Shown in pieces: positions 7,881-51,174 of a DNA stretch of 64,000 bases. Numbering within the stretch: the first letter of the stretch is position 1; the number at the start of each line of letters is the position of its first letter. The stretch is from UHGV virus genome UHGV-0279745. One strand, given 5' to 3'. Below the pieces are notes generated by a model, which did no database searches, was not told the DNA's origin, and saw nothing but the letters and a program-made list of their open reading frames with translations. A program made the position numbers and the translations under genes. The stretch comes from a virus.

Positions 7881-8489
7881 ATGAACGAAATTACATTAGT
7901 TCGTTTTCTTGAAGCGATGCAAAATGCAGAGCGCTTTTCGCATACGCCTTTATTCATTGACTTAATGGAAGAAGAAGTAGAGGGATTCCTGGCATACCCT
8001 CGCTTACGGGAATATTTTAAACGTAAAACACCGACTGCTTACGAAAAGTTGGTTTACGCGCTTGAGAACAGTACAACATTGTTAACGTCACCTTTTAAGG
8101 CGTTGGAGGCTTTAGACCCGGCTGGTACCACAAGTATCCCACAACGTGTCGTGTTCTACTATATCGACCACGATCGAATCAAAGCCGATGTTGTTAACTG
8201 GATCTCTGAAAACGCAGTTCCTGAAACACGCACTTTTAATCTCTGTCCTGTAGAAGAAGGGTGGAAGGTCGGTAGCCACTATTCTTACCCGTACCAATCC
8301 ATTAAATCGCCGTTTTTATACCCGGTTTATCTGGATGACGTTACACCTGGAAATTGTATCCCGGTAACAAATCTGATCTGTACATTGACGATGGAAGTCT
8401 TAGCCACAAAGGCGGGACAGGTTTGGGTAGAAAACACGAAGAACGTCGATTATTGGACTTCAATGGGTTATCACCTGTACACCAAATAA
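7881..8489 (+). CDS. hypothetical protein
   Basis: ORF track; RBS aaaggaaaga. Confidence 0.65.
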   Translation: MNEITLVRFLEAMQNAERFSHTPLFIDLMEEEVEGFLAYPRLREYFKRKTPTAYEKLVYALENSTTLLTSPFKALEALDPAGTTSIPQRVVFYYIDHDRIKADVVNWISENAVPETRTFNLCPVEEGWKVGSHYSYPYQSIKSPFLYPVYLDDVTPGNCIPVTNLICTLTMEVLATKAGQVWVENTKNVDYWTSMGYHLYTK

Positions 8490-8492
8490 CGT

Positions 8493-8540
8493 TTGGGAGA
8501 ACCTTCGGGTTCTCCCTTTCTTTATTTTTTTTTCTTTTTA
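8493..8540 (+). terminator. intrinsic terminator
   Basis: gggagaacc-ttcg-ggttctccc hairpin plus long T-run. Confidence 0.7.
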
Positions 8541-8569
8541 CACCACACTCCGTCTTTATGGAGGTGGGT

Positions 8570-11074
8570 ATGCTAAAAGTTGAACGGATTATACTCAAAG
8601 GTTTTACGGGGATGGGATTACATGAAATTGAAACCTTCGATTTCACTATCCAGTCTCCGACAACAATTATCCTGGGTGGGAACGGCTGCGGGAAAACCAG
8701 TCTACTGTCTGTGTTCCTACCCTTAGCACCGGCTAAAACCGAATTCAGGGACGGCGGTTCTTACACAAACTACTGTTTAGTTGGCGATCAACGCTATCGT
8801 TTCAAAGTTGCCCGTAAAGGCAACTCTTTGGTTTGCGATATTGAGAACCTGACCACGGGGGCAAAGATCGTCGAGCAAGGTAATGCGAAAGTCTACAACT
8901 CCCGTGTTGAAGAAATCACAGGTATTACAAAAGAGATTAAAGAATTATTAAATGGTGAGGTGTTGTTAACCGATGCGGGAACCGAATTACGCCGCAAATG
9001 GTTTTACCGTTTAAGTACCTCTGATCTCACTTACGCGTTAGGGTTTTATCAACGTTTACGTAAAAACCTTACTGCCTTAAATGGGGGTATTGAAATCACC
9101 AGCCGTAAGATCGCCGAATTACGGACGCGTGTTATTGAGAACGAGGAAGAACGGCAGCAGTTAGCGACGAGATTAAAAGGTTTGGAATCGGATTTACGTG
9201 AACTGAACCGAGAAATCGAACAGTTACCAGGATTAAATCGTGCCGTCACCATCGAAACAATCCAAGCGTTATTAAACAGCTTGGGTCCAACCATCGACGC
9301 AATATTACAACATCGTGGTGGATTGCCTACTGATGAACAGATACTGGCCGCGCGACAAAACGAAGCGACGGCCCGCGAAGCCGTCGTGTCTACTGAAACA
9401 GAGGTATCGATGTTGAATAAAGACTTGTCGCTACTGATGGATGAGTCGACACGACAAGACTACCTGATGCGGAATCACGAAGGTCTCAAGAATACACTGG
9501 CACGTTTACGTGAGTTACTTACCAAATGGGACACCGAGCATCTCTTTCCGGGTTTATTTAACGACAACATCAATTTAGACCAACTTCGTGCGGCTACCGA
9601 CGCGCGTGTTTGGGGGCAACGGTTAGGAACAACACTGGACGCAATTCATTCAACCGAAAAACTTAATGTTTTGGAAGAACGGCTTCTGGTGATGGATCAA
9701 AAAACCGCAGGGTTGCGGGATAGACTCCAGCGAGTGGAGAACGTTTTACAGAATTTAAATCACGAACGTAATCACTACTTAGAAACAGCGGAAGTGGATT
9801 GCCCGCAGTGTCGGTTTAAGTTCCGTCCTGGCGTTACGCGTTCTTTACCTGAACTTGAGTCTTCGATTCGCGGACAACAACAGCAGCGCACGGAACTGCA
9901 AACGCAGTTAGAGACTCTATTACGCGATCGTGTTGAGTTAGAATCCGATGTAACTTATATGCGGCAGGTTCGTGAGATTGTACTGACGTATTCAAAGGAC
10001 CCGGTATTGAGCATGTTCTTTAAGCGTTTGCAAGAACGTAACGTTTTCACAGAATCACGTGAACAGTTCGGGAGTCTATGCGCAGCGTTTGACAGTGAGT
10101 TGTACTCTGCTATTGAGTACCATGAAACCCGTCAACGGTTAGTGAAGGCGGAAAAAGAATGGCAGGATGCCGTGGCGGCCGTTGGTAACGTCGATGGTGC
10201 TTTACAACAGAAAATTGCTTTCCAACAGTCACGATTAGGTAAAGCCACAGAGATGCTCTCAATGCGTCGTAGAGAGTACGAACTGGCTAACACGACACTT
10301 ACCTATCTGGTGAATGTTAAACGTGCTGTAGATGATTTCAGTGCGTTATTCGAACGGTTAGAGAGTGATGTTAAGGTTACGTTGACAAATACGGTCGTCG
10401 AGGAACTCTTACGTGCACGAGAAGGGAAGCTGGATGCTTTTACAACCGCACGCGAACGTTATCGTCAGATGGAAAATGAATTGAATCAGCTCAACAGTTT
10501 GGAACGCGAACTTGCTGACTTACAAGCCCAGCAATTCAATAACAAACTGATGATTCAAGCCTTCTCTCCAGAAAAGGGTGTACTTAGAAAGTATTTTTAC
10601 AACGCTATCGTTAGAATCACAGAGTTAATGACGCGTTATATCGAACAGGTCTGGACGTACCCCATGCGCGTTATGCCTTGTGACCTCACTGACGGCGATT
10701 TGGATTATACTTTTCCTGTCCAGCTAAAAACGCATCCTGAGCCTGTTCCTGACGTGCGTAAAGGGTCTAAGGCGCAGCGTGCGATATTTAATCTGATGTT
10801 CAGGCTGACTGCGTACAAAGCGCTGAAGTTGCATCAGTTTCCGTTGCTTTTGGATGAGCCTTCGGAAGGCATGGATGAGGAGCACCGTAACAACCTGGTC
10901 GGTTTTATTAAAACGTTAGCAAACTCGGGAGAATTTTCCCAACTGTTGGTAGTCTCCCACGAAGCCGAGGTTCATTCTAAACTTAATGAAGCATCGTACT
11001 GTGTCATCGAACCGGAAGGGGTGACATTGCCTGCGGTGTATAACGAAGGAGTAAAAATTGTTTATGCAAACTGA
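8570..11074 (+). CDS. SbcC/Rad50-like recombination ATPase
   Basis: Start moved to ATG 8570 (RBS GGAGGTGGG, downstream of terminator); Walker A GGNGCGKTS, long coiled-coil middle, CPQC zinc hook, C-terminal LLDEPSEGMD. Confidence 0.7.
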   Translation: MLKVERIILKGFTGMGLHEIETFDFTIQSPTTIILGGNGCGKTSLLSVFLPLAPAKTEFRDGGSYTNYCLVGDQRYRFKVARKGNSLVCDIENLTTGAKIVEQGNAKVYNSRVEEITGITKEIKELLNGEVLLTDAGTELRRKWFYRLSTSDLTYALGFYQRLRKNLTALNGGIEITSRKIAELRTRVIENEEERQQLATRLKGLESDLRELNREIEQLPGLNRAVTIETIQALLNSLGPTIDAILQHRGGLPTDEQILAARQNEATAREAVVSTETEVSMLNKDLSLLMDESTRQDYLMRNHEGLKNTLARLRELLTKWDTEHLFPGLFNDNINLDQLRAATDARVWGQRLGTTLDAIHSTEKLNVLEERLLVMDQKTAGLRDRLQRVENVLQNLNHERNHYLETAEVDCPQCRFKFRPGVTRSLPELESSIRGQQQQRTELQTQLETLLRDRVELESDVTYMRQVREIVLTYSKDPVLSMFFKRLQERNVFTESREQFGSLCAAFDSELYSAIEYHETRQRLVKAEKEWQDAVAAVGNVDGALQQKIAFQQSRLGKATEMLSMRRREYELANTTLTYLVNVKRAVDDFSALFERLESDVKVTLTNTVVEELLRAREGKLDAFTTARERYRQMENELNQLNSLERELADLQAQQFNNKLMIQAFSPEKGVLRKYFYNAIVRITELMTRYIEQVWTYPMRVMPCDLTDGDLDYTFPVQLKTHPEPVPDVRKGSKAQRAIFNLMFRLTAYKALKLHQFPLLLDEPSEGMDEEHRNNLVGFIKTLANSGEFSQLLVVSHEAEVHSKLNEASYCVIEPEGVTLPAVYNEGVKIVYAN

Positions 11075-11243
11075 TTGGTTCCGTCGTATTGTGGATGCGG
11101 TAGGGTTTGGCTTCATGTCCATTTTAGCGGTTCTTTATGTCATGTTTTGTGTGGTGATGATTTTATGGGTAGTTTCATCTTATCTGATTAAACTATCGTG
11201 GGGTTCAATTTGGCGTCAACGCGAATGCGAATGGCGGAATTAG
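11064..11243 (+). CDS. small membrane protein (59 aa), translationally coupled to the SbcC-like gene
   Basis: ATG at 11064 with GAAGGAG RBS inside the 3' end of the upstream gene; one hydrophobic helix. Confidence 0.5.
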   Translation: MQTDWFRRIVDAVGFGFMSILAVLYVMFCVVMILWVVSSYLIKLSWGSIWRQRECEWRN

Positions 11244-11253
11244 GAGAGGGAAT

Positions 11254-11352
11254 ATGGTTGTAGGGGTTCTGTTAACACTTGGCTCGTTGTGGTTAATTGG
11301 TAAAGGTTTAAACTGGCTGATTAAACGTCACCGTTGGGCGTTCGAAGATTAA
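11254..11352 (+). CDS. tiny membrane protein (32 aa)
   Basis: GGAGAGGG RBS then ATG; MVVGVLLTLGSLWLIGKG... single TM helix; not in ORF track. Confidence 0.3.
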   Translation: MVVGVLLTLGSLWLIGKGLNWLIKRHRWAFED

Positions 11353-11409
11353 CCACCCAAATAATCCAGAAGATACCCTCCGGTGTGAGGGTATTGACAG
11401 GAGCAGAAA

Positions 11410-11538
11410 ATGACCACGATAAACGCTACGAATGTAGCGATATCCGCACTATACGACGCGGAACTTTCATGGGGTGGATTAATAATCACCACAGCCATAT
11501 TAGCCGCTGCGGCTTTCGTCATCGCGCGTTGGTTTTAA
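11410..11538 (+). CDS. tiny membrane protein (42 aa)
   Basis: CAGGAG RBS then ATG; hydrophobic C-terminal helix; not in ORF track. Confidence 0.3.
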   Translation: MTTINATNVAISALYDAELSWGGLIITTAILAAAAFVIARWF

Positions 11539-11569
11539 TTTTACTTTTTTGCGTCTCTAAGGTTTGCAA

Positions 11570-12013
11570 ATGGAAATTTATTTGTTGAACGCATCTTCTA
11601 AAGTCGGTGAGCGACAAGCTGCCGATTTACTCAAACTACACTACCGTTACTTAGACCACCAGGCCACGTTACTGAAAATCAAAATGTCGGTGCCGAAGTT
11701 AAATGCGCGACAGCTGATCGAAGGTAACTGCATAGTTCTGGTGTATCAGGATGATGTCGCGGTAGGATACTGTAGTTATCGGAATCGTAACGGCTCACTT
11801 AAGATACGTTCGGTATACGTGCTCCCAGACCATCGTCAACGGGGTGTAATGAAAGAGATTTTCAAAGCAATTGCAGCTGATGAAGTTTTCGGCGAGATTG
11901 TTACTGGCATGTATGCGAAATGTAAAGAAGCAAAAGAGTATTTCATCCGACGCGGCTATCAGGCGGTTTACTCACGCGATCGTGAGTGGGTCGATTTTAG
12001 CAAAACATTCTAA
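11570..12013 (+). CDS. GNAT-family N-acetyltransferase (putative)
   Basis: ATG at 11570; GNAT motif A-like VLPDHRQRGVMKEIF. Confidence 0.55.
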   Translation: MEIYLLNASSKVGERQAADLLKLHYRYLDHQATLLKIKMSVPKLNARQLIEGNCIVLVYQDDVAVGYCSYRNRNGSLKIRSVYVLPDHRQRGVMKEIFKAIAADEVFGEIVTGMYAKCKEAKEYFIRRGYQAVYSRDREWVDFSKTF

Positions 12014-12079
12014 AAACAATAAAGCTCTCTTGGCGTACCTCACTATGAGTGTGAGAAATTTACGTCAGGAGAGCTAATT

Positions 12080-12325
12080 ATGTTAAAATCGTACGGAGTG
12101 GGTGGTTTGGATACGAGTATTTGTTGGAAAGAATACGAACGTGCGAAAGCGTTCTTACAGCATCCCAATGTGGGGACAATAGGTAAGGTCTGTTTCGGCA
12201 AACCTTCACTGACGGCTTGTATCCAAGGGGCTTTAGGGACGTTGCCACCCGAAACACATTTCGAGCCTGAGGAGAATATGAATGTTCACAGAGAACCCAT
12301 CAATTTACGGCATACCGTTGAATGA
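12080..12325 (+). CDS. hypothetical protein
   Basis: ORF track; RBS caggagagc; overlaps next gene by 44 nt. Confidence 0.45.
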   Translation: MLKSYGVGGLDTSICWKEYERAKAFLQHPNVGTIGKVCFGKPSLTACIQGALGTLPPETHFEPEENMNVHREPINLRHTVE

Positions 12326-12650
12326 AATTGATATTCTGCAAATTTGTTATCAGTGCGGCGACTTCGGTAAGACACAAGTAACGCCGTTAGTTAAGCTTTT
12401 AGGTTACTTGCCTGAAATCGAGTTACCTTTTGTTAAACCTAGCTTAGTTCGTCGCGCATCGTGTCGCGAAGCTTATTTGCTCTGGAAACACAATATTTCA
12501 GTAGAGAAGGTCTGGGACCGTATGAACGATCATCAGTTCCGTGAGCAGGTCGTGCACACGCTTAACTTGGCACTGACTATGCAACGCCTGGGCTTACAAC
12601 ACGAGGGTTTAGAAGCGGCGGTCAAGCAATGGATTACGAAAAATCGATAA
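12282..12650 (+). CDS. hypothetical protein
   Basis: ORF track; RBS gaggaga. Confidence 0.5.
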   Translation: MFTENPSIYGIPLNEIDILQICYQCGDFGKTQVTPLVKLLGYLPEIELPFVKPSLVRRASCREAYLLWKHNISVEKVWDRMNDHQFREQVVHTLNLALTMQRLGLQHEGLEAAVKQWITKNR

Positions 12651-12737
12651 TGGGTAAAACATATATCGCTATACTTGTCGAGCTATCAATCGGCGGTACA
12701 CGTTTTAATACTACACATCAACTCCGGGCGTTTCGTT

Positions 12738-13235
12738 ATGTTAACGGTACGTAAAGAATCTGAAATTGGTAACGATCTTTTTAATGCGCCCGAAGACTAT
12801 AAAGTCGTTACCATTAATTGCGTAGGAGCGATGGGTCGCGGTATTGCACTCGCGTGTCGTGAACGCTACCCCAACCTTTACCAGGATTATCGTAAGCGGT
12901 GTCGTGAAAACGAAATTAAGATTGGAAACGTTTACGTTTACTCTGACGAAAAGTGTATCTTGCTCCCCACGAAAACCCATTGGCGCTTAAAGTCCCAGGT
13001 TTCTTATGTTACTGCGGGCATTACCGCACTAGCGGATTGTGCTGAGGATCTGGATACCAGCGTTGCTATCCCTCCACTGGGAATGGCAAACGGGTGGTTA
13101 GATTCCTGGGAAAGACAAGAAATCTTTTTGTGGCTTTACAAAAAACTTGAATCAAGGAGACAACACTACACGTTATACTTACCTGATAAGTTGTACCAAG
13201 AAGCAGAGTCATTAATTCCAAACTCTTTTAAATAG
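12738..13235 (+). CDS. macro-domain-like protein (tentative; ADP-ribose binding/processing fold)
   Basis: ATG 12738 preferred over TTG 12675; motif VTINCVGAMGRGIALA resembles the macro-domain glycine-rich loop; assignment from motif only. Confidence 0.4.
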   Translation: MLTVRKESEIGNDLFNAPEDYKVVTINCVGAMGRGIALACRERYPNLYQDYRKRCRENEIKIGNVYVYSDEKCILLPTKTHWRLKSQVSYVTAGITALADCAEDLDTSVAIPPLGMANGWLDSWERQEIFLWLYKKLESRRQHYTLYLPDKLYQEAESLIPNSFK

Positions 13236-13253
13236 ATATTATCATTAGGGCAC
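13234..13253 (+). promoter_or_regulatory. candidate promoter-like element, variant class (agatattatcattagggcac)
   Basis: Shares the AGATAT..TTATC core with two other intergenic sites and resembles the early motif. Confidence 0.25.
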
Positions 13254-13335
13254 ACAACAAAGGAGTATTAGCTGTCCGCGCCGTCATTTCGTCTTACGGA
13301 ATACGGAAATGTATAAATCCAACTGGAGAAACAAA

Positions 13336-14034
13336 ATGTTTCGTATCTTCTTTCTTTTACTGGTAACACTTTTCGCGTTTAACGCACAGGCGTCAACGTC
13401 AACGCCACATTCTAAGCATCAGCGTGAGTTTGCACAAATCCAACATCGGTTCGAAAAAGTCAGCCCGTTAATTGTGGAAATCTCACGAAAGCAGGGCGTT
13501 GATCCCAAGCTGATGATTACGCTGATTTATCGTGAATCGCGTTTTGATCCCAAGGCTTACAACAAAAGCTCACGAGCACATAGCCTGGTACAAATGCTTC
13601 CAAGTACCAAACGTAATCTGCTAAAGCTTTATGGAAAAGAATTAGGTCTTAGTCAGAACGCCGATTTGTATAATCCGCGCAACGCTGTTTTGCTGGCTAC
13701 CGCGTATGTTAAACATCTTGAGAAGGGGTTAACCAAACGACTCAAACGCAAGCCCACCATGGCTGAAATTGCGTTAGCTTACCACTGGGGTGAAAGTGGC
13801 GCTCACACGCGAATCAAAAGCAAATCTCGAGCAGCACAACGAGAAATGGCAGGCTTTATGAAAGACGCCGCGTTCTATAGCGCGAAAATCGATGTGCCTG
13901 TTGTTGTGGGCTCGGCCCCACGTCAGCTTGCGTTTGCGAAGAAAACACCACGTCAGATTCAACTGGCGGAAGTTAGTAGAATTTGGGATACGATAAACAC
14001 GAGTTTTCCAATCAATAGAGGAGTTACCCTTTGA
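13336..14034 (+). CDS. secreted lytic transglycosylase (SLT domain)
   Basis: ATG 13336 with GGAGA RBS; signal peptide MFRIFFLLLVTLFAFNAQA; SLT motif ESRFDPKAYNKSSRAHSLVQMLPST. Confidence 0.6.
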   Translation: MFRIFFLLLVTLFAFNAQASTSTPHSKHQREFAQIQHRFEKVSPLIVEISRKQGVDPKLMITLIYRESRFDPKAYNKSSRAHSLVQMLPSTKRNLLKLYGKELGLSQNADLYNPRNAVLLATAYVKHLEKGLTKRLKRKPTMAEIALAYHWGESGAHTRIKSKSRAAQREMAGFMKDAAFYSAKIDVPVVVGSAPRQLAFAKKTPRQIQLAEVSRIWDTINTSFPINRGVTL

Positions 14035-14540
14035 GCATCGTAGTAACCGATTGGTATAAAGGCATTACAAAAGCCGCACAATTGACCGCGAAAGACGTTT
14101 ACAGTATCGTCCGAAGCAGTATCGAAGACGAGATTAAGTCGGATGAAGAATTCGCTGAGAAACACGAATTTTACGATGCTTTACCCACAGCATTCGGCGA
14201 CGACGAAGAAGAAGGTTTAGAGTTTGACTGGAACGTCAACCTTGCCTTACTGTGGATTTGTGGTTTACGGCCAACGGTAAAAGAAACCGAAGAAGGAAAA
14301 GTCTTGCTTTGGAATTTTACCGGGCAGTATAACCGTAATTTAGTCTTTAAACAGGCGTATATGGACGCTACTGTAGAACTTCAAAATCTACTGCTTGGCG
14401 AAAACACATACTGCCAACGCAGTTTCTTAACGATTCTGGAAAAACTTGTGTCGACACACAAAGTCTGGCGTAAAGAAGACGCCCCGGAACATATGTTCAT
14501 TTTAGAGTACGCTGTCATTCCAAATCAGCCGTTCTTCTAA
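14031..14540 (+). CDS. hypothetical protein
   Basis: ORF track; TTG start overlapping upstream stop, AGGAG 7 nt upstream. Confidence 0.5.
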   Translation: MSIVVTDWYKGITKAAQLTAKDVYSIVRSSIEDEIKSDEEFAEKHEFYDALPTAFGDDEEEGLEFDWNVNLALLWICGLRPTVKETEEGKVLLWNFTGQYNRNLVFKQAYMDATVELQNLLLGENTYCQRSFLTILEKLVSTHKVWRKEDAPEHMFILEYAVIPNQPFF

Positions 14541-14544
14541 TCCC

Positions 14545-14586
14545 TACCCCTTACCCTATACGGTGTAAGGGGTACTTTTATTTTCA
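14545..14586 (+). terminator. intrinsic terminator
   Basis: ccccttac/gtaagggg hairpin plus T-run. Confidence 0.6.
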
Positions 14587-14606
14587 TTCCCTAAAGGAGC
14601 AGAGTT

Positions 14607-44049: not shown

Positions 44050-47000
44050 TTACGCCGATTTACGACTAACGTCGAGTTGTGGCGCTGGTTGGGTTATTGA
44101 CACGTTACGTGACGCCGAACCCGGAGCGGTTGACGCAGGGTTAGCCGGTCCGTTTTGCATAGCCTGTGGTCGCTGACGAAGAATTGTTACAATCTCTTTC
44201 AGGTAGCCCGCAGACTCTTTTGCAACCGCCAGCTGCTGTACGCTGATCGGATCACCGCTGTTCACTGTAGAGCCGGTCTGTGCATCGGAAGTTACTGTTG
44301 GTGCAGGGCGGACTGATTTCTCCATCTGCTGTCTAGCACCTTCTTTTACTTTAGCAACATCCTCTTCGGCCAGGCCGTCAGCACGAGCATTTTGACCCAC
44401 CGTATCTACAACAACTGACGCATCACTCGGTGTCACGTCGCCGCCGGGGCTCGGCACCGCCGGACCACCGCCCGTCGCAGCTTTAATGTCATCGGCCCCC
44501 ATTGCACCTTTATCTGCTAAGGCTGTGTCACGATTCGCCTCGTTCGCAGCTGGCAGGTTATCTGCCGGGCCTGTGATGGACGGATCGTTAGCAGCGCCCG
44601 CAGCGATGGCTGGGGATGACGGCATTGGCGTTACGCCAGTCGTCAAGTCTTTCACCGATGCCTGATTGCCCGCAATTGCGTTTGTTCCTACTGCACCAAT
44701 CTTACCACCCATGATGCTGAGCACTTCATCCAAACTACGCAATTTTCCATTCTTGTAGAAAATTGTGCTGTTTGCCGCGATTTGATCGGCCGATGCACCA
44801 CGCGATGACGGACCGTTCGGATCACGCTTCCATTCTTGCAGGAATTTCTTACCGCCACCTTGTCCTAAGAAGTGGTAGAGGTAAACTGCCGCACCGGGAG
44901 GATCGATGCCACCTAAATCCTTTCTGGCTTTCTCGATATTGTCACGAATATGGCGGACACCAAGCAGGGCATTCGCCCACGGGTCATACTGGTCGGTTTG
45001 CGGGATACCGTAACGTCTAGCGTAAGCTTTCATCTGCTCACTCCAGGTACCGTTGATGAACTGGAACAAGCCAGCTGCAGAACTTCCTTTAGCTTTGATG
45101 CCGTATCTAAGTCCTGATTCTGCTTGTGCCATTCCCAGCGCTAACGCTGGAGGAACACCCATCATCTTCGCTACGTCTATAATCAGTGCTGCGACCGCAT
45201 TCAGGTTAGGCTTCAATCCGTCACCCAACGTTGAAATTGGATACTTAGCCGCTAACGTTTTATAATCACCGTCTTGCATCTCGCCAAGCTTCACACCGAA
45301 GTTACCGGTACTAAACGCGGCGTAATTCTTAGCCCCCATCTGACCATAAGCACCAGCCAAATCGTTTGGCGTGCCGTAATTACCACCGTCATTCGCTGCC
45401 GGTTGAAGCAGATCGCGATAAGAGGAGGAAGTATTCATCTGTTGCCGAGGTGGTTGGTCCTTCTCGTCATCGGTCAAGAACATCTGAGTCGCACGATCTT
45501 TTCGCTGCCAGTTCACACGGAAACCAGCAGAAGGCGTAGCACGCAGCGTTTTACGTACTGCCAAATCAGCTTCCTTAGACAGTTCTTTCAGGTTCTCTAA
45601 CTCCGTTGCAACTGAACCAGCGTCAGTGTTAGCATCACCCCCTAACGGGTTAAACGGTACCTCCCACACCGATTGGCGAATACCCCCTTTCAGGTTGTAC
45701 GCACCACGCATCATCAGTGCGATTTCATACAAGAACCCGCCTGTAACGCGTAGGTCCATCGGATCGGCAGCAGGGACATAACGTTTCACCCCAACCACGT
45801 ACGTCATGAAGACAGGTAAGAAGCGGTTATAGAACCAGTTCTTGTACCGATCTTCTTTTGGTCCACCAATAGCGTCAGGTGCAATCACTGCAATCGCACG
45901 TTTCCAGTCTCCTTTATACGTACAACTTTTCACATCAGTGTCTTGCAACACTTGACGTTCTAGGAGCGTATAGAGGTTACGGGTTGTTTGAGTAATGCTC
46001 ACCGCACCATAAGCTTTCAACCTTACAGATTCCAAATCACGGAGATCGGTTTCTTTAGGTAAGCTTCTCCAGTCAACTTGAACCTGAACTTGTTCGGTGC
46101 CGTCTTCCCAACCTTCAACCTTTGCAACCTCTTTGTTGCGTTCCGCATCCGCTTGAGCCAACGCTTGGGTCGATTCCGCCACAGAAGCAACTTTGTGTCC
46201 TTCGGCCACGCTGCCCGTAGCATTTACATCCTTACGTTTTTCATCACGACGCATGTTAATCGAACGAAGCACGCGTTCTTGTGCTTCAACGACTTCTTCA
46301 CCTGACAAAAACTCGGCCGGGGTAAACGTTACGAAATCCCACGCTTTAGAGAACCAACCTTGGTTAACCTTGCGGGGGTCTTCTAATGCACGGAATGCAG
46401 GTGCGTCTTTCGACATCTTCATTTTGTTAAAGATGTTCAACATGTCTGCTTTCGACACTTTCGCTGGATTACCGACGTCTGCTAACGCGATATCGTTATC
46501 CATCGATTTCAGTGCCGTAATCCAACGTAAGTAAATAGGCACAAAACGTTGTAGCATAAACGCACTAAACGCCAGCATTTCGCCTTTGTCTTCTACGTTA
46601 GTACCAAACCCTTCGGCCAGTTTCTTCACATCGTCACCAGACAAACCACGCAGCTGCGCTTGACCGTTCTCTGTATAAGAGATATACGGTTTCAAGTTGT
46701 CTTCTAAATAACGTGCTTTTGCACCGTCGTCGGAAGACCATTCATCATGGTCTCTAAAACCGTACTGCGCCAATCGCATGTTATCTAGGTACTGGGCATT
46801 TACACGATCTTTAGTTTTATAATAAAACCACGTTAACCCTGCGCCAGCGGCTACCAAACCGATAATCGGCCAGCCAACCGCAGTTACCACTGCAGATGCA
46901 GCTGTCGCGACAGCACTCACCGCAGGGACAGCCAAACGGGTCACGGCAAACTTACCAACGTTCCACAACGCTTTGCCTGCAAATCCGACCGGCTTGAAGA

Positions 47001-50000
47001 TTCCCCATTTTGCAAGTTTACCTAAGATTGAACCCACTGTGCCTAAAATACTCACGATTGGTCCTACCAACGGCAATCCTTTAAGGAAATCCATTACCCC
47101 ACGTTTACCACCTTTCTTCTCAGCCTCTTTCTTAGCCTTTTCCTCTTCCTTAGAACGCCGACGGCGTCGGAAGAACTGGAAGTAATCGCGTTTTTCATCA
47201 CTGGCAGGCGGCTTATTGCGTTGGCCGAACTTACTGAACATAGTTCTTAACAAACCTTCCGAAGCACCTGCTTTTTCCGCAGAATCACGCATGGTGTTAA
47301 ACCATGACATTTCCTGAAGATTAACCATTCGGTTCAGGCGTTCCAGTAAAGCTGACCCAACGCTACGGGCTTTCTGTTTCCCTTTATTAATCACACGTCC
47401 AGCGCTATCCGTTACGGTGTCTAAGTCTTCTTTTGCCGCATCGATGATACGTGTTTTAGACACCTTGCCTCTTGCGTAGATGTGCTGACGATAAAACTCA
47501 GCAACATCGTCATCGCGTCCTGCTAAACGACTCTCCATTCGATAACGTGTGCCGATATCGTAACGTGGGTCTCGGAAAGTATCGACCATATCGCTTGCAC
47601 GGCCACGGAAACGATCAAACCAACCACGTGCGGCACCGCCCCAACGAGAAAGACGACCACCTACCGCACTGCGATAACGGGACATTCTGTCACGCATCCG
47701 ACCACGCCAATCCCGGAACCCCTGAAAATGTTCACGGAACCCATCACGTATGTCTTTAGCACGTTGGAATAATCCTTTAACTGAGCTGGCTCCCGTATTC
47801 CGTTCCATCTGTTCTGTCCAGGTATCATCTTCTGGTTCACCTGGCAATCTCCGGTTAAGGAGTTTGTAGATACGGATTAAGATGTGGTTAGTTTTACGGC
47901 CGTTCGACCATGAGAACACACTAAACCCACCACCAGAACCCCCTTCCTTACGGTTCTGCCACCAACGTGTCAGAGGGTTATCAGAAGCCAACTCTTTGAG
48001 CTTCTCAAATCCGCGTTTTGCATTGTTCCACAAACGTGCTGGCATTCCCGTTACACGGGAAATCATGCTTTGTAAACGGGTTTTCTCTGCACCCTCTGGA
48101 ACCTCATTTAACCACTCGCGTGCTTTCTCGAACAACGAAGCCGCTTTAGGCGAAATGAAACCCAGAAGTTTCTTCGGTAAAGTCACAGCTTTGTTTACCG
48201 CCGTTCCTGCTTTCCCAGAAATGTACTGGAAAAGCGCTTGAACTTTACCACCTTTGTAGAAACGCAGTTTACCTGCGGCAGCCAAATCAGCAGCAGCTAA
48301 GATTAAATTACCCGCTTCATCGACGATGTCACGTCCCAGTTTAATATCGTCGAGAGTTTTAAGTTGAATCAGCTTCTCAGTTTTCGGGTCAGCCTGGTAA
48401 TATTCCCCAGCTTCTAAACGACTTCCTTGTAATACGACGTTGCCACGTTCATCGTAGATGTCGCGAACGCCTAAAACACCTTTACCGAAAGCTACGGCAG
48501 AATTCCAACCCGTCGATAATGTACCGGTTACTAACCCTTTCAGTCGGCTAAATACGCCGGGACCTTCGGAGGAACCGCCTGAGAATTTCCCACGAATAAA
48601 ACCACCTAATGCTTGTAGGCGATCTTTCCCACGTAGGAACAGATTCTTACCAAACCGTCCTACACCAGAACCGGTATCCCAAAGCACTCCAGCCCAGCGA
48701 CGTAACAAACCTGTCTCGCCTAGTACAATACGTTTGCGCTTACGACGACGTTTACGGCCCGATTCACTCGAACTTTCAGGTTCGTCGCCGTCATCACGAC
48801 TACCGCCTAAACTGGCTAGAAGAATACCTTCCTCATCCATGTTCTTAACGTGTTTGAGGATATCTTGCACGGTGCTAGATTCAGGCTGTTTACGTACGGC
48901 ATCAATCAATCGATCGAACTGTTGTTCCAGCCCGGCGTTCGTATCTGGACGGCTGCTTAAGAGCTCAACAAAGTTGGTAGATTTCTCTCCATAAAGTACC
49001 GCAGCGAGTTGACGGGCGCTTAAACCACGACCGCGACCACCTTTTCCACCACCACGTACGTTGGACAGTTCTTTGTCTTCAAAGCTCGGCTCTGCTCCTG
49101 CACCCATCCGACGCAAGTAATCACCCAACGCAGAACCATTTTGCAGCTTACGTTGAATCTCTTGCTCACGGGTTAACGAACGGCCAGAACGGGTCTTACC
49201 CATCGACAGGTCGTTAAATAGCGTATAGGGATCGTTAATGTCCTTATCGACTTCGAAAATGTCGTTCTTCGCATCGTATTTAAAAATACCGGAATCGCGA
49301 AGTGCGTTCTCGCCGTAAATCACAGACGCAGCATCAACCGTGTCTTGACGTGCACGAATCGTTGACTGAATAGCGGCTATTTTGTTTGAAATCGCATTAC
49401 TCAGTTCATGGTGACCGCCAACCAGTTCCGCAGAACGGGCTTCTAAAACACCCTGAATCGCTTCCACAGCGTTTGCGTTCATGTAACGATACATGTGCAT
49501 CGGGTCTTTCAATAAAGACCCTACATCGAACGCTTTCCCTTCCGAGGCACGAGACTCGATGTAGTCCGCTAACGCCTGACGTGTTTTCCTATCGAGCGTT
49601 TTATCTTTATCGATAAAGTCGACAGTGTCGTTGATGTACGTCTGTAAACGTTTGCGCTGATCGTCATTAGCAACGGCCTTACGTACACGATTACCAATAA
49701 CTTTGCGATCAACCATACCGCGCGTGGTCAGGTCGTATACCTGATCGTGGTGTTCGCCATACCCACGACGAATAGATTTGTTAATCTCGGACAGTAACGT
49801 CGGAATAACTTCGGTGATACTAAGGTAAGCTTTACGATCGAATTTCGCTGCGGCAGAAAGAGATTCCGCAGAGCGATCGTCTAATGCTAAGGTTTCGCGA
49901 CGTAGCGGGTTAACTAGCCCCAATTCGTGCATTAGTCGAAACAGATCAGCTAACGGACCGCTTGTTTCTCCCGCTATTGCCGAGTTAGAAATAGACGACA

Positions 50001-51174
50001 AATTTCCAAAGCCATACTTCGCCAACTGTAGGCGTTTCATGACTTCTGGGTTTTTCTCTAACTCGCCACGGGTCCAGTTCTGAAGACGCTCGATCTGGGG
50101 TTGTAAGAGACGTTTTGCTAACCAACCACCTGCAAAACCTGCCGCTTTATTACGCGAGTTTGTGTTACGACGGTCAGGAGACAACGATGAGCTGTCCGAC
50201 ATGTCAAAGTCATCTTCCTGAGCCATCCCTAGAACTTGTTCTAGAATCCCACGACCATCACTAAAGATGTTCGAGATTTTCTTCTTCGCGTTTTCGCGAA
50301 TCTGACCAATGAAATTATCTGCGTAGTGTAAGGGGTTCATCCACTCCGCAGCTTTACGTTTTACATTAGCCCAACGAATTTCAGAAAACTCTTCCTTCGC
50401 GTAGTCGGGTAGTGCCGTGTTCTTAACGATGGCTTCTAATGCCGGGGTGTTGCGTGCAAACTCGTCTTGTTTGAGTTTCGCAATATCCTGCAAAGCAAAC
50501 AATGTCCGATATTGCAGCTCTAACTGCTTACGCTGAACATTCAACAACACGCCACGACTTAAGCTAGTCGTTAAGTTGACGTCTTTTGCAATACCGATTA
50601 CGGTCTGGAACAGCGCGTCGGACTTCATGTCCTTAATCGTGTCGCGCAAGCGGTCTTCAACCATCCCCTCTTGCGCCTCACGTTGCTGGTCCGCTGTTTG
50701 CGGTGCACCTGAGAACACGCTGTCCAGCTCACGATCCATCATCGCTTGTTTAGGATCGTAATTCCCATAGTCGATTTGATCGTTACGTGCCCACTTGTCG
50801 ATTTTCCGTGTTACGGATTCCGGTAAATACCGTTTCAGTGTTGGGCCTAACTGTCTCGCTTGCATCTTAACGACGCGAGACGTCTTTTCAATCTCGTCTT
50901 TCGTATGGGCCAGAATGTCTTGACCTGCGGCTTTAACGTTTTGATAGCCTTCGTAGGCTTCTGCCGCAGGTTTAGGCATCCCTTTTAAAATAACCTGATC
51001 ACGTTTGTTTTCGGGCCAGATAGTCGACAACGCCGACTTACGGGCAGCACGAAATGTGTCCATGACCGGGTTACGCGATTGGTCTTGTTGACGAGGGGGC
51101 TCATCAAAATCGTCCCAGTCGTCCATGTTATCAAGATCGATTTCATCGAAATCATCTTTACCTTTTTTAGCCAT
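44050..51174 (-). CDS. giant virion-type protein (2374 aa) with transmembrane segments and C-terminal lytic transglycosylase (SLT) domain
   Basis: Uninterrupted 7.1-kb ORF; SLT motif GMAQAESGLRYG...GLFQF encoded about 44830..45160; Gly/Ala-rich hydrophobic helices about 46800..47090; acidic N-terminus. Confidence 0.8.
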   Translation of the reverse strand: MAKKGKDDFDEIDLDNMDDWDDFDEPPRQQDQSRNPVMDTFRAARKSALSTIWPENKRDQVILKGMPKPAAEAYEGYQNVKAAGQDILAHTKDEIEKTSRVVKMQARQLGPTLKRYLPESVTRKIDKWARNDQIDYGNYDPKQAMMDRELDSVFSGAPQTADQQREAQEGMVEDRLRDTIKDMKSDALFQTVIGIAKDVNLTTSLSRGVLLNVQRKQLELQYRTLFALQDIAKLKQDEFARNTPALEAIVKNTALPDYAKEEFSEIRWANVKRKAAEWMNPLHYADNFIGQIRENAKKKISNIFSDGRGILEQVLGMAQEDDFDMSDSSSLSPDRRNTNSRNKAAGFAGGWLAKRLLQPQIERLQNWTRGELEKNPEVMKRLQLAKYGFGNLSSISNSAIAGETSGPLADLFRLMHELGLVNPLRRETLALDDRSAESLSAAAKFDRKAYLSITEVIPTLLSEINKSIRRGYGEHHDQVYDLTTRGMVDRKVIGNRVRKAVANDDQRKRLQTYINDTVDFIDKDKTLDRKTRQALADYIESRASEGKAFDVGSLLKDPMHMYRYMNANAVEAIQGVLEARSAELVGGHHELSNAISNKIAAIQSTIRARQDTVDAASVIYGENALRDSGIFKYDAKNDIFEVDKDINDPYTLFNDLSMGKTRSGRSLTREQEIQRKLQNGSALGDYLRRMGAGAEPSFEDKELSNVRGGGKGGRGRGLSARQLAAVLYGEKSTNFVELLSSRPDTNAGLEQQFDRLIDAVRKQPESSTVQDILKHVKNMDEEGILLASLGGSRDDGDEPESSSESGRKRRRKRKRIVLGETGLLRRWAGVLWDTGSGVGRFGKNLFLRGKDRLQALGGFIRGKFSGGSSEGPGVFSRLKGLVTGTLSTGWNSAVAFGKGVLGVRDIYDERGNVVLQGSRLEAGEYYQADPKTEKLIQLKTLDDIKLGRDIVDEAGNLILAAADLAAAGKLRFYKGGKVQALFQYISGKAGTAVNKAVTLPKKLLGFISPKAASLFEKAREWLNEVPEGAEKTRLQSMISRVTGMPARLWNNAKRGFEKLKELASDNPLTRWWQNRKEGGSGGGFSVFSWSNGRKTNHILIRIYKLLNRRLPGEPEDDTWTEQMERNTGASSVKGLFQRAKDIRDGFREHFQGFRDWRGRMRDRMSRYRSAVGGRLSRWGGAARGWFDRFRGRASDMVDTFRDPRYDIGTRYRMESRLAGRDDDVAEFYRQHIYARGKVSKTRIIDAAKEDLDTVTDSAGRVINKGKQKARSVGSALLERLNRMVNLQEMSWFNTMRDSAEKAGASEGLLRTMFSKFGQRNKPPASDEKRDYFQFFRRRRRSKEEEKAKKEAEKKGGKRGVMDFLKGLPLVGPIVSILGTVGSILGKLAKWGIFKPVGFAGKALWNVGKFAVTRLAVPAVSAVATAASAVVTAVGWPIIGLVAAGAGLTWFYYKTKDRVNAQYLDNMRLAQYGFRDHDEWSSDDGAKARYLEDNLKPYISYTENGQAQLRGLSGDDVKKLAEGFGTNVEDKGEMLAFSAFMLQRFVPIYLRWITALKSMDNDIALADVGNPAKVSKADMLNIFNKMKMSKDAPAFRALEDPRKVNQGWFSKAWDFVTFTPAEFLSGEEVVEAQERVLRSINMRRDEKRKDVNATGSVAEGHKVASVAESTQALAQADAERNKEVAKVEGWEDGTEQVQVQVDWRSLPKETDLRDLESVRLKAYGAVSITQTTRNLYTLLERQVLQDTDVKSCTYKGDWKRAIAVIAPDAIGGPKEDRYKNWFYNRFLPVFMTYVVGVKRYVPAADPMDLRVTGGFLYEIALMMRGAYNLKGGIRQSVWEVPFNPLGGDANTDAGSVATELENLKELSKEADLAVRKTLRATPSAGFRVNWQRKDRATQMFLTDDEKDQPPRQQMNTSSSYRDLLQPAANDGGNYGTPNDLAGAYGQMGAKNYAAFSTGNFGVKLGEMQDGDYKTLAAKYPISTLGDGLKPNLNAVAALIIDVAKMMGVPPALALGMAQAESGLRYGIKAKGSSAAGLFQFINGTWSEQMKAYARRYGIPQTDQYDPWANALLGVRHIRDNIEKARKDLGGIDPPGAAVYLYHFLGQGGGKKFLQEWKRDPNGPSSRGASADQIAANSTIFYKNGKLRSLDEVLSIMGGKIGAVGTNAIAGNQASVKDLTTGVTPMPSSPAIAAGAANDPSITGPADNLPAANEANRDTALADKGAMGADDIKAATGGGPAVPSPGGDVTPSDASVVVDTVGQNARADGLAEEDVAKVKEGARQQMEKSVRPAPTVTSDAQTGSTVNSGDPISVQQLAVAKESAGYLKEIVTILRQRPQAMQNGPANPASTAPGSASRNVSITQPAPQLDVSRKSA

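Follow-up and report, generated by a model that had tools for sequence, protein, structure and literature searches.

An AdfM-type macrodomain gene and a separate GNAT, hairpin and EF-Tu look-alike module in a jumbo phage related to SPN3US

Background

The macrodomain protein of chimalliviruses was named AdfM (anti-DarT factor macro) by Morgan et al. (Cell Rep 2026; PMC13309987), and its members include PhiKZ gp104, PhiPA3 gp108, Goslar gp83 and Asesino gp217. PhiKZ gp104 strips DarT2-made adenosine diphosphate (ADP)-ribose from a TNTC oligonucleotide, a mutant in the conserved Asn is inactive, and the protein by itself rescues DarT2 toxicity in E. coli (PMC13309987); DarTG2 resistance requires it. 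Import into the phage nucleus via PicA has been shown for PhiKZ, PhiPA3 and Asesino proteins, and Asesino gp217, which is listed as AdfM in the alignment of that paper, was seen in the phage nucleus (PMC13309987). Here we describe a locus at positions 11570-13235, on the + strand, of a 64,000-nucleotide stretch of the viral genome UHGV-0279745; this whole stretch is called the window below. The locus encodes an orthologue of AdfM and, upstream of it, a GNAT-fold acetyltransferase followed by an RNA hairpin and a small gene that resembles the N-terminus of elongation factor Tu (EF-Tu).

We consider it probable (roughly 0.78) that these genes belong to two separate functional units, one being the AdfM orthologue and the other a module made up of the GNAT gene, its structured spacer and the EF-Tu look-alike. 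A first-pass annotation of the window had presented the GNAT and macro genes together as candidate host-modifying or counter-defence enzymes. Its observation and its reading of the macro gene stand, its proposal for the GNAT is unsupported, the pairing of the two that it implies does not hold, and the GNAT module takes the place of that pairing.

Three described systems are closest to the macro protein. Like other AdfM proteins, it is a stand-alone macrodomain of ~160-165 amino acids encoded by a chimallivirus, with a DarG2-like sequence and fold and with the catalytic Asn and Lys kept. It differs in coming from a new lineage (a megablast of 11000-14600 against the phage collection gave no match) and in being 36% identical to PhiKZ gp104. 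DarG2 antitoxins (Thermus aquaticus and M. tuberculosis, 5M3E/5M31/5M3I; Thermosipho, 7OMU) share its macrodomain class and its active-site residues, but the window protein is phage-encoded and comes without a DarT-binding domain or darT, and it may be regarded as an orphan antitoxin. AdfN, the orphan NADAR anti-DarT1 enzyme of T4-like phages (PMC11825919), is likewise a phage antitoxin-like hydrolase that clears DarT-made ADP-ribose from the phage's own DNA. However, AdfN has a NADAR rather than a macro fold, is concerned with guanine and DarT1 rather than thymine and DarT2, and belongs to another phage group.

Results and discussion

The macro gene is an AdfM orthologue

The two motifs on which the first-pass annotation was built are present, RQRGVMKEIF in the GNAT open reading frame (ORF) and INCVGAMGRGIALA in the macro ORF, both on the + strand. 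Both ORFs stand well clear of chance, and the two family assignments drawn from the motifs also hold, with Pfam thresholds passed and strong PHROG matches. The macro gene (12738-13235, + strand; ORF as listed 12675/12738-13235) encodes a DarG2-type macrodomain of 165 amino acids that scores 27.5 bits with Pfam Macro (cut-off 22) and matches phrog_335 at E=1.7e-36.

Comparisons within the macrodomain class point to DarG. The protein matches the NCBIfam DarG model at E=2.5e-36 and the PADLOC DarG model at E=3.8e-37, and the closest solved proteins found by phmmer in the PDB are the DarG macrodomains 5m3i (M. tuberculosis, 2e-25) and 5m31 (Thermus aquaticus, 1.5e-20), with identities to DarG of 32-34%. 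Other macrodomain classes appear in that search only at E>=0.03. The NCBIfam match spans profile positions 7-156 of 338, with a score of 125.6, below the cut-off of 250, and both DarG matches are confined to the macro half of the profile. Because they cover this half only, the protein is taken to lack the DarT-binding domain of a true antitoxin. No darT adjoins the gene, which is flanked by one hypothetical gene and one transglycosylase gene. The candidate that it is the DarG antitoxin of a DarTG operon was rejected on these two grounds, that is, no C-terminal DarT-binding domain was matched and no darT is adjacent.

An AlphaFold2 model built with 26 homologues as input has a mean predicted local distance difference test (pLDDT) value of 93.4 and a predicted template-modelling score (pTM) of 0.90. 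Searched with Foldseek, it gives macrodomains on top, with 175 matches at E<=0.001. The best PDB matches are 5m3e, 5m3i and 5m31 (E about 1e-13, target template-modelling score 0.85), and these are followed by 7omu (Thermosipho DarTG), with TARG1 among the next matches at 3e-7. Two residues, N27 and K79, are invariant in the 26 homologues and align with N23 and K78 of PhiKZ AdfM and with N22 and K80 of Thermus DarG; the catalytic roles of this Asn and Lys are those given in PMC13309987. The macro fold and the ADP-ribose-site residues on which the first-pass annotation had made its assignment depend are therefore both found.

The protein is 61.6% identical to Asesino gp217 (YP_009290835.1), which occupies the same genomic position, downstream of an SMC gene and followed by an SLT gene, and the best homologues in the phage collection are ~65% identical. 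The macro gene is an AdfM orthologue because of its identity and synteny with Asesino gp217, its aligned N27 and K79, and its closeness to DarG macrodomains. For this copy, enzymatic activity, nuclear localisation, a DarT2 target and a protective effect are carried over from the orthologues. By that analogy, the protein would be made in the cytoplasm and then imported into the phage nucleus, where it would hydrolyse the ADP-ribose that host DarT2 puts on thymidines of single-stranded phage DNA. Asn27 and Lys79 are predicted to carry out this hydrolysis, and replication and packaging could thereby continue in DarTG2-bearing hosts. The first-pass annotation had suggested that a phage macro protein could counter DarT-like toxins, an idea that agrees with experiments on the orthologues PhiKZ gp104 and Asesino gp217 and that has already been published (PMC13309987).

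With this gene, the newly defined AdfM family gains a divergent lineage that is associated with Salmonella, and the position of AdfM in a conserved block of enterobacterial chimalliviruses is confirmed. This is not new biology, but it helps to predict which jumbo phages are DarTG2-resistant.

A phage-specific GNAT with an atypical motif A

The GNAT gene (11570-12013, + strand; ORF as listed 11564/11570-12013) encodes a protein of 147 amino acids that carries RQRGVMKEIF. It scores 32.1 bits with Pfam Acetyltransf_7 (cut-off 27) and 32.1 bits with Acetyltransf_1 (cut-off 20.7), and it matches phrog_3810 at E=1.5e-25. The GNAT fold is confirmed. Orthologues are SPN3US gp75, Asesino gp212, phiEaH2 gp114 (YP_007237764, 163 amino acids) and Caitlin YP_009292274. 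The family is small and confined to phages: a profile search of 1.84 billion cluster representatives returned 12 at E<=1e-10, and beyond these ~12 phage-type clusters the same search gave only generic matches to the core that binds coenzyme A (CoA), with no informative cellular relative.

Membership in the GNAT superfamily is clear from the Pfam models and the fold, but the protein fits no subfamily, having an atypical motif A and a clade-specific N-terminus. RQRGVMKEIF occupies the position of motif A, which in GNATs binds the pyrophosphate of acetyl-CoA; here R89-Q-R-G92-V-M94 stands against the usual Q/R-x-x-G-x-G/A. All 24 members have Met at the final G/A position, many have K, Y or H in place of G92, and an invariant Phe stands in this family where motif B usually has a tyrosine. 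Only this phage clade has the N-terminal 50 residues, a region with a helix on which H24, Y25 and Q31 are invariant. The nearest GNAT structures (3FIX, 3FNC, NatD, RimI, HP0935 and PaiA) form a flat mix of protein N-terminal and small-molecule acetyltransferases, and no substrate can be deduced because these structural neighbours span many substrate classes.

Several more specific identities were considered and rejected. With the RimI model TIGR01575 the protein scores 15 bits, where 86.4 would be the cut-off, and the label "ribosomal-protein-alanine acetyltransferase" that some GenBank records carry is unsupported; ArsN2 and MshD were also rejected, with scores far below the model cut-offs. 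A SpeG-like spermidine acetyltransferase was rejected as well, in that the enzymes that have been tested (phiEaH2 YP_007237670 and Caitlin YP_009292176) are different genes of the same genomes. SPN3US, phiEaH2 and Caitlin each carry this second, unrelated SpeG-like GNAT, which is active from phiEaH2 and Caitlin and inactive from SPN3US (PMC9992855; PNAS 2023). In distant relatives, Wellington-like metagenome contigs of the Joint Genome Institute (JGI), two tandem GNAT genes of 124 and 160 amino acids (L004 7614-8483 and L005 2393-3262) take the place of the single one in the window.

A host-modifying or counter-defence role, which the first-pass annotation had put forward for the GNAT as well as for the macro protein, found no support. 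PADLOC gave no match to a defence component for the GNAT or for the two genes that follow it, and for a GNAT of chimalliviruses or of SPN3US we found nothing in the literature.

A small EF-Tu look-alike gene follows the GNAT

Downstream of the GNAT lies a small gene (12080-12325, + strand; phrog_28329) whose product of 81 amino acids has an EF-Tu-like segment. Its orthologues are SPN3US gp74, Asesino gp213 and ChrisDB gp215. Residues about 17-57 resemble EF-Tu residues about 2-41, which comprise the N-terminus, strand 1, the P-loop and helix A. NCBIfam EF-Tu models match the window copy at E=3e-4 and the Erwinia copies at about 5e-6. With a profile of six phage members, 59 of the 60 PDB matches listed are EF-Tu chains, with E values down to 3e-6, and the sole other match among those 60 is a weak one to eIF2-gamma (E=0.037). 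The segment HVNVGTIGHVDH is kept exactly in the Erwinia phage copies.

The likeness to EF-Tu is local, covering its N-terminal ~40 residues. In contrast to EF-Tu, members of the family are 62-109 amino acids long, have nothing of the G domain past helix A, have mostly lost the P-loop, and carry an unrelated conserved N-terminal motif (CW-EY-R). The GK[ST] of the P-loop is lost in most members, and across the family the P-loop reads GKPS, DDT, SRS or GRS. That the protein is itself EF-Tu or another translational GTPase was rejected, as it has 81 amino acids, no complete G domain and no P-loop GxxxxGK[ST] that is intact across the family. Some copies are labelled "putative elongation factor Tu" or "putative GTPase" in GenBank; the gene is far too short for either.

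The association of this gene with the GNAT is strict. A homologue of 12080-12325 starts 66-80 nucleotides after the GNAT stop codon in every lineage examined, and tblastn finds the small gene in 48 of the 53 GNAT-bearing records. The other five records are the divergent group of Wellington, Kwan and pEa_SNUABM_11. Loci L014 and L004, of the Wellington type, do have the conserved hairpin spacer together with a start codon and an ORF. The GNAT is tied to the small EF-Tu look-alike, not to the macro gene, and GNAT, structured spacer and look-alike appear to constitute one fixed module. This module is the part of the locus worth following up, being conserved over several genera and without literature. 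It offers a testable handle on how nucleus-forming phages treat the host translation apparatus, which remains outside the phage nucleus.

A conserved hairpin precedes the EF-Tu look-alike gene

The spacer between the two genes of the module contains a stem-loop (12023-12075, + strand) with a minimum free energy of -29.5 kcal/mol and a z-score of -7.3. Across phages, the spacer DNA has a mean column identity of 71%, though the flanking GNATs are only 26-40% identical. RNAalifold gives 13 consensus pairs, three of which show compensatory double changes. Ten distinct homologous spacers fold to the same tiered hairpin, at -32 to -42 kcal/mol, with apical stems that differ. The element is unique within the window, and an Rfam scan of 11000-13500 matched no family.

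The 3' arm of the hairpin holds a Shine-Dalgarno sequence, AGGAG (12067-12071), 8 nucleotides before the ATG of the small gene. In the predicted fold, the hairpin would occlude the ribosome-binding site of the EF-Tu look-alike gene. The apical loop carries TATG (12044-12047), and TATG is found in the apical region in most lineages. In PhiKZ, this sequence serves the non-virion RNA polymerase as its late-promoter and start-site motif (PMC4666361). One might speculate that transcripts starting at TATG would free the ribosome-binding site. That the invariant TTTACG of the hairpin is a general promoter motif found no support: the window holds 24 copies of WTTTACGY, where 17.8 +/- 4.1 would be expected.

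The GNAT and macro genes are not a functional pair

Four co-oriented + strand genes fill 11570-13235, where the first-pass annotation implied two. It had called the GNAT and macro genes neighbours, but they are separated by two small genes, 12080-12325 and 12282-12650, both of them conserved. Across the lineages examined, from 1 to 5 genes separate the GNAT module from the macro gene. AdfM homologues occur in 267 phage records, PhiKZ-like Pseudomonas phages included, whereas the GNAT occurs in 53, all of them Erwinia, Salmonella, Escherichia or Proteus jumbo phages, that is, in 214 fewer. The GNAT and AdfM are not a functional pair, because of this difference in distribution, because PhiKZ AdfM acts alone, and because the number of intervening genes varies. 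The pairing implied by the first-pass annotation thus has to be given up, with AdfM working alone in E. coli and present in 214 more phage records than the GNAT.

Alternative explanations

Several points weigh against reading the locus as a working AdfM gene beside a separate GNAT module. The sole AdfM that has been tested biochemically, PhiKZ gp104, is only 36% identical to the window protein, and the Asesino orthologue has been tested for localisation only. Nuclear import would hinge on PicA, and no cognate copy was located in the window, no search for it having been made. A host that carries DarTG2 would have to be presumed; the closest relatives sit in Salmonella enterica assemblies. Lastly, activity of the GNAT is not assured, because its motif A is atypical (with Met in place of the final G/A and a variable G92) and its motif-B Tyr is an invariant Phe.

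The macro protein might be a general hydrolase of ADP-ribose derivatives rather than a DNA de-ADP-ribosylase, acting for example as an ADP-ribose-1''-phosphatase, an O-acetyl-ADP-ribose deacetylase, an enzyme that removes mono-ADP-ribose from protein or RNA, or a degrader of ADP-ribose immune signals. Labels on its homologues in GenBank and PHROG ("putative Appr-1-p processing protein" or "phosphatase") point this way, a comparative review of jumbo phages put forward the degradation of soluble ADP-ribose signals as the role of their Macro domains (PMC7824862), and proteins are the substrate of TARG1, which comes next after DarG among the structural classes. We nevertheless regard a general hydrolase as quite improbable: the Pfam Macro score of 27.5 bits compares with 125 bits for DarG models, sequence and fold are clearly nearest DarG, Poa1p-type ADP-ribose-1''-phosphatases match only at E 0.03-0.07, and the orthologues act on DarT2-modified DNA and are needed against DarTG2. 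It is very improbable that the GNAT and the macrodomain work in one pathway, by making and removing an acetyl-ADP-ribose-type product or by jointly modifying a host target. Every GNAT-bearing genome does have both genes in the same conserved, co-oriented block, from the SMC/SbcC-like gene to the transglycosylase gene, but AdfM is far more widespread (267 phage records against 53), PhiKZ AdfM alone neutralises DarT2 in E. coli, and the number of genes from the GNAT module to macro varies (1-5), as opposed to the fixed gap from GNAT to EF-Tu-like gene. The view of an AdfM orthologue standing apart from the GNAT module is accordingly kept.

The nature of the GNAT itself allows more than one explanation. 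A catalytically degenerate protein that uses the GNAT fold for binding or as a scaffold would account for a motif A that ends in an invariant Met instead of Gly or Ala, for a central Gly that is K, Y or H in many members, and for the invariant Phe at the position of the usual general-acid Tyr. In GNAT enzymes, however, the CoA pyrophosphate is held by main-chain amides, and many active members of the superfamily are without a motif-B Tyr. Moreover, the window copy retains R89 and G92, the Pfam models score above threshold across the CoA-binding core, and the gene is under strong purifying selection (ratio of nonsynonymous to synonymous substitution rates, dN/dS, 0.065), such that degeneracy appears improbable. 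Any activity of the module would have to be conjectured from its make-up. The GNAT could be a protein acetyltransferase of host takeover that targets the translation apparatus and works with or on the EF-Tu look-alike. In one variant it acetylates EF-Tu or the mimic, and in another the mimic serves as decoy or competitor where an enzyme or a defence factor recognises the N-terminal region of EF-Tu. The two genes strictly co-occur and adjoin, with a conserved regulatory hairpin between them, and the likeness of the small protein is specific to EF-Tu. Protein N-terminal acetyltransferases, RimI included, are among the structural neighbours of the GNAT, the N-terminus of E. coli EF-Tu is acetylated by RimI (PMC9079301), and phage GNATs that modify host machinery are known, such as Rac (cited in PMC7824862). 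On the other hand, the GNAT fails the RimI model, with 15 bits where 86.4 is the cut-off, its structural neighbours include small-molecule acetyltransferases in equal number, and the EF-Tu-like segment lies inside the small protein and not at its N-terminus. In EF-Tu this segment is largely buried strand, P-loop and helix, which makes surface mimicry of folded EF-Tu unlikely. We hold this proposal as tentative and, on balance, unlikely. A fuller version, which we consider doubtful, is that SPN3US, Erskinevirus, Machinavirus and Wellington-type chimalliviruses share an undescribed, strictly conserved module in which a GNAT and an EF-Tu N-terminal mimic, the latter with its ribosome-binding site shut in a covarying hairpin, act on host EF-Tu or on an enzyme or defence factor that recognises its N-terminal region. 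The hairpin may be opened by transcription from the late-promoter-like TATG in its loop. If true, the module would be a device for translation-directed takeover or for counter-defence.

Locus layout and the phage

The likely start codons are ATG 11570 for the GNAT and ATG 12738 for the macro gene, because the same protein lengths (147 and 165 amino acids) are called in all close relatives. The remaining gene of the locus (12282-12650, + strand; phrog_11720, E=8.7e-31) encodes a conserved hypothetical protein, listed as 122 amino acids, with homology from about residue 22-33 on. Its match in SPN3US is the C-terminal part of gp72, and tblastn gives 34-42% identity to SPN3US, Asesino, phiEaH2 and JGI contigs; Pfam, NCBIfam and PADLOC gave no match. 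Compared with the nearest relative, DNA identity is about 86% over the block and 84-93% across the four genes. All four genes are under purifying selection (dN/dS 0.06-0.16), with values of 0.065 for the GNAT, 0.158 for the small gene, 0.056 for 12282-12650 and 0.084 for the macro gene. Scans of 11000-13400 for sigma-70 promoters and intrinsic terminators returned no more than chance.

Protein-level collinearity shows a gene order common to SPN3US, Asesino, phiEaH2, Caitlin, ChrisDB and metagenomic contigs: an SMC/SbcC-like gene, small ORFs, GNAT, small genes, macro and an SLT transglycosylase. Other genes of the window encode the split beta subunits of a multisubunit RNA polymerase, a recombinase of UvsX type and a giant tail protein. 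Seoulvirus is classified within the Chimalliviridae, and Asesino has been shown experimentally to be a nucleus-forming phage (PMC11724907). Judged by its gene content, the window comes from an undescribed SPN3US-like, putatively nucleus-forming jumbo phage of the Chimalliviridae that represents a new lineage.

The closest relatives, at 91-95% protein identity, sit on contigs (up to 226 kb) from assemblies of Salmonella enterica and of sequencing runs; outside Salmonella assemblies and metagenome contigs, which have ~86% DNA identity, the phage is not known. This suggests an unrecognised jumbo phage that is carried along with, or contaminates, those Salmonella enterica isolates. Among these closest relatives, whose protein identity in this block is about 91%, contig AAWEAX010000007.1 (226,167 bp) of GCA_014613015.1 is filed under a Salmonella enterica isolate assembly.

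The SMC/SbcC-like ORF, listed as 8354-11074 (+ strand), has as its start a TTG in overlap with the gene before it. Alignments to homologues set in only at about residue 46-51, and the P-loop region runs from near residue 95. The true start is probably near 8558-8570, because the homologue alignments and the P-loop begin well inside the listed ORF. On the other side of the locus, a stand-alone SLT-type transglycosylase gene (13309-14034, + strand) adjoins the macro gene; relatives call its start at 13336, for a product of 232 amino acids. A second SLT-type domain lies near the C-terminus of a tail or tape-measure-like protein of 2374 amino acids (44050-51174, - strand).

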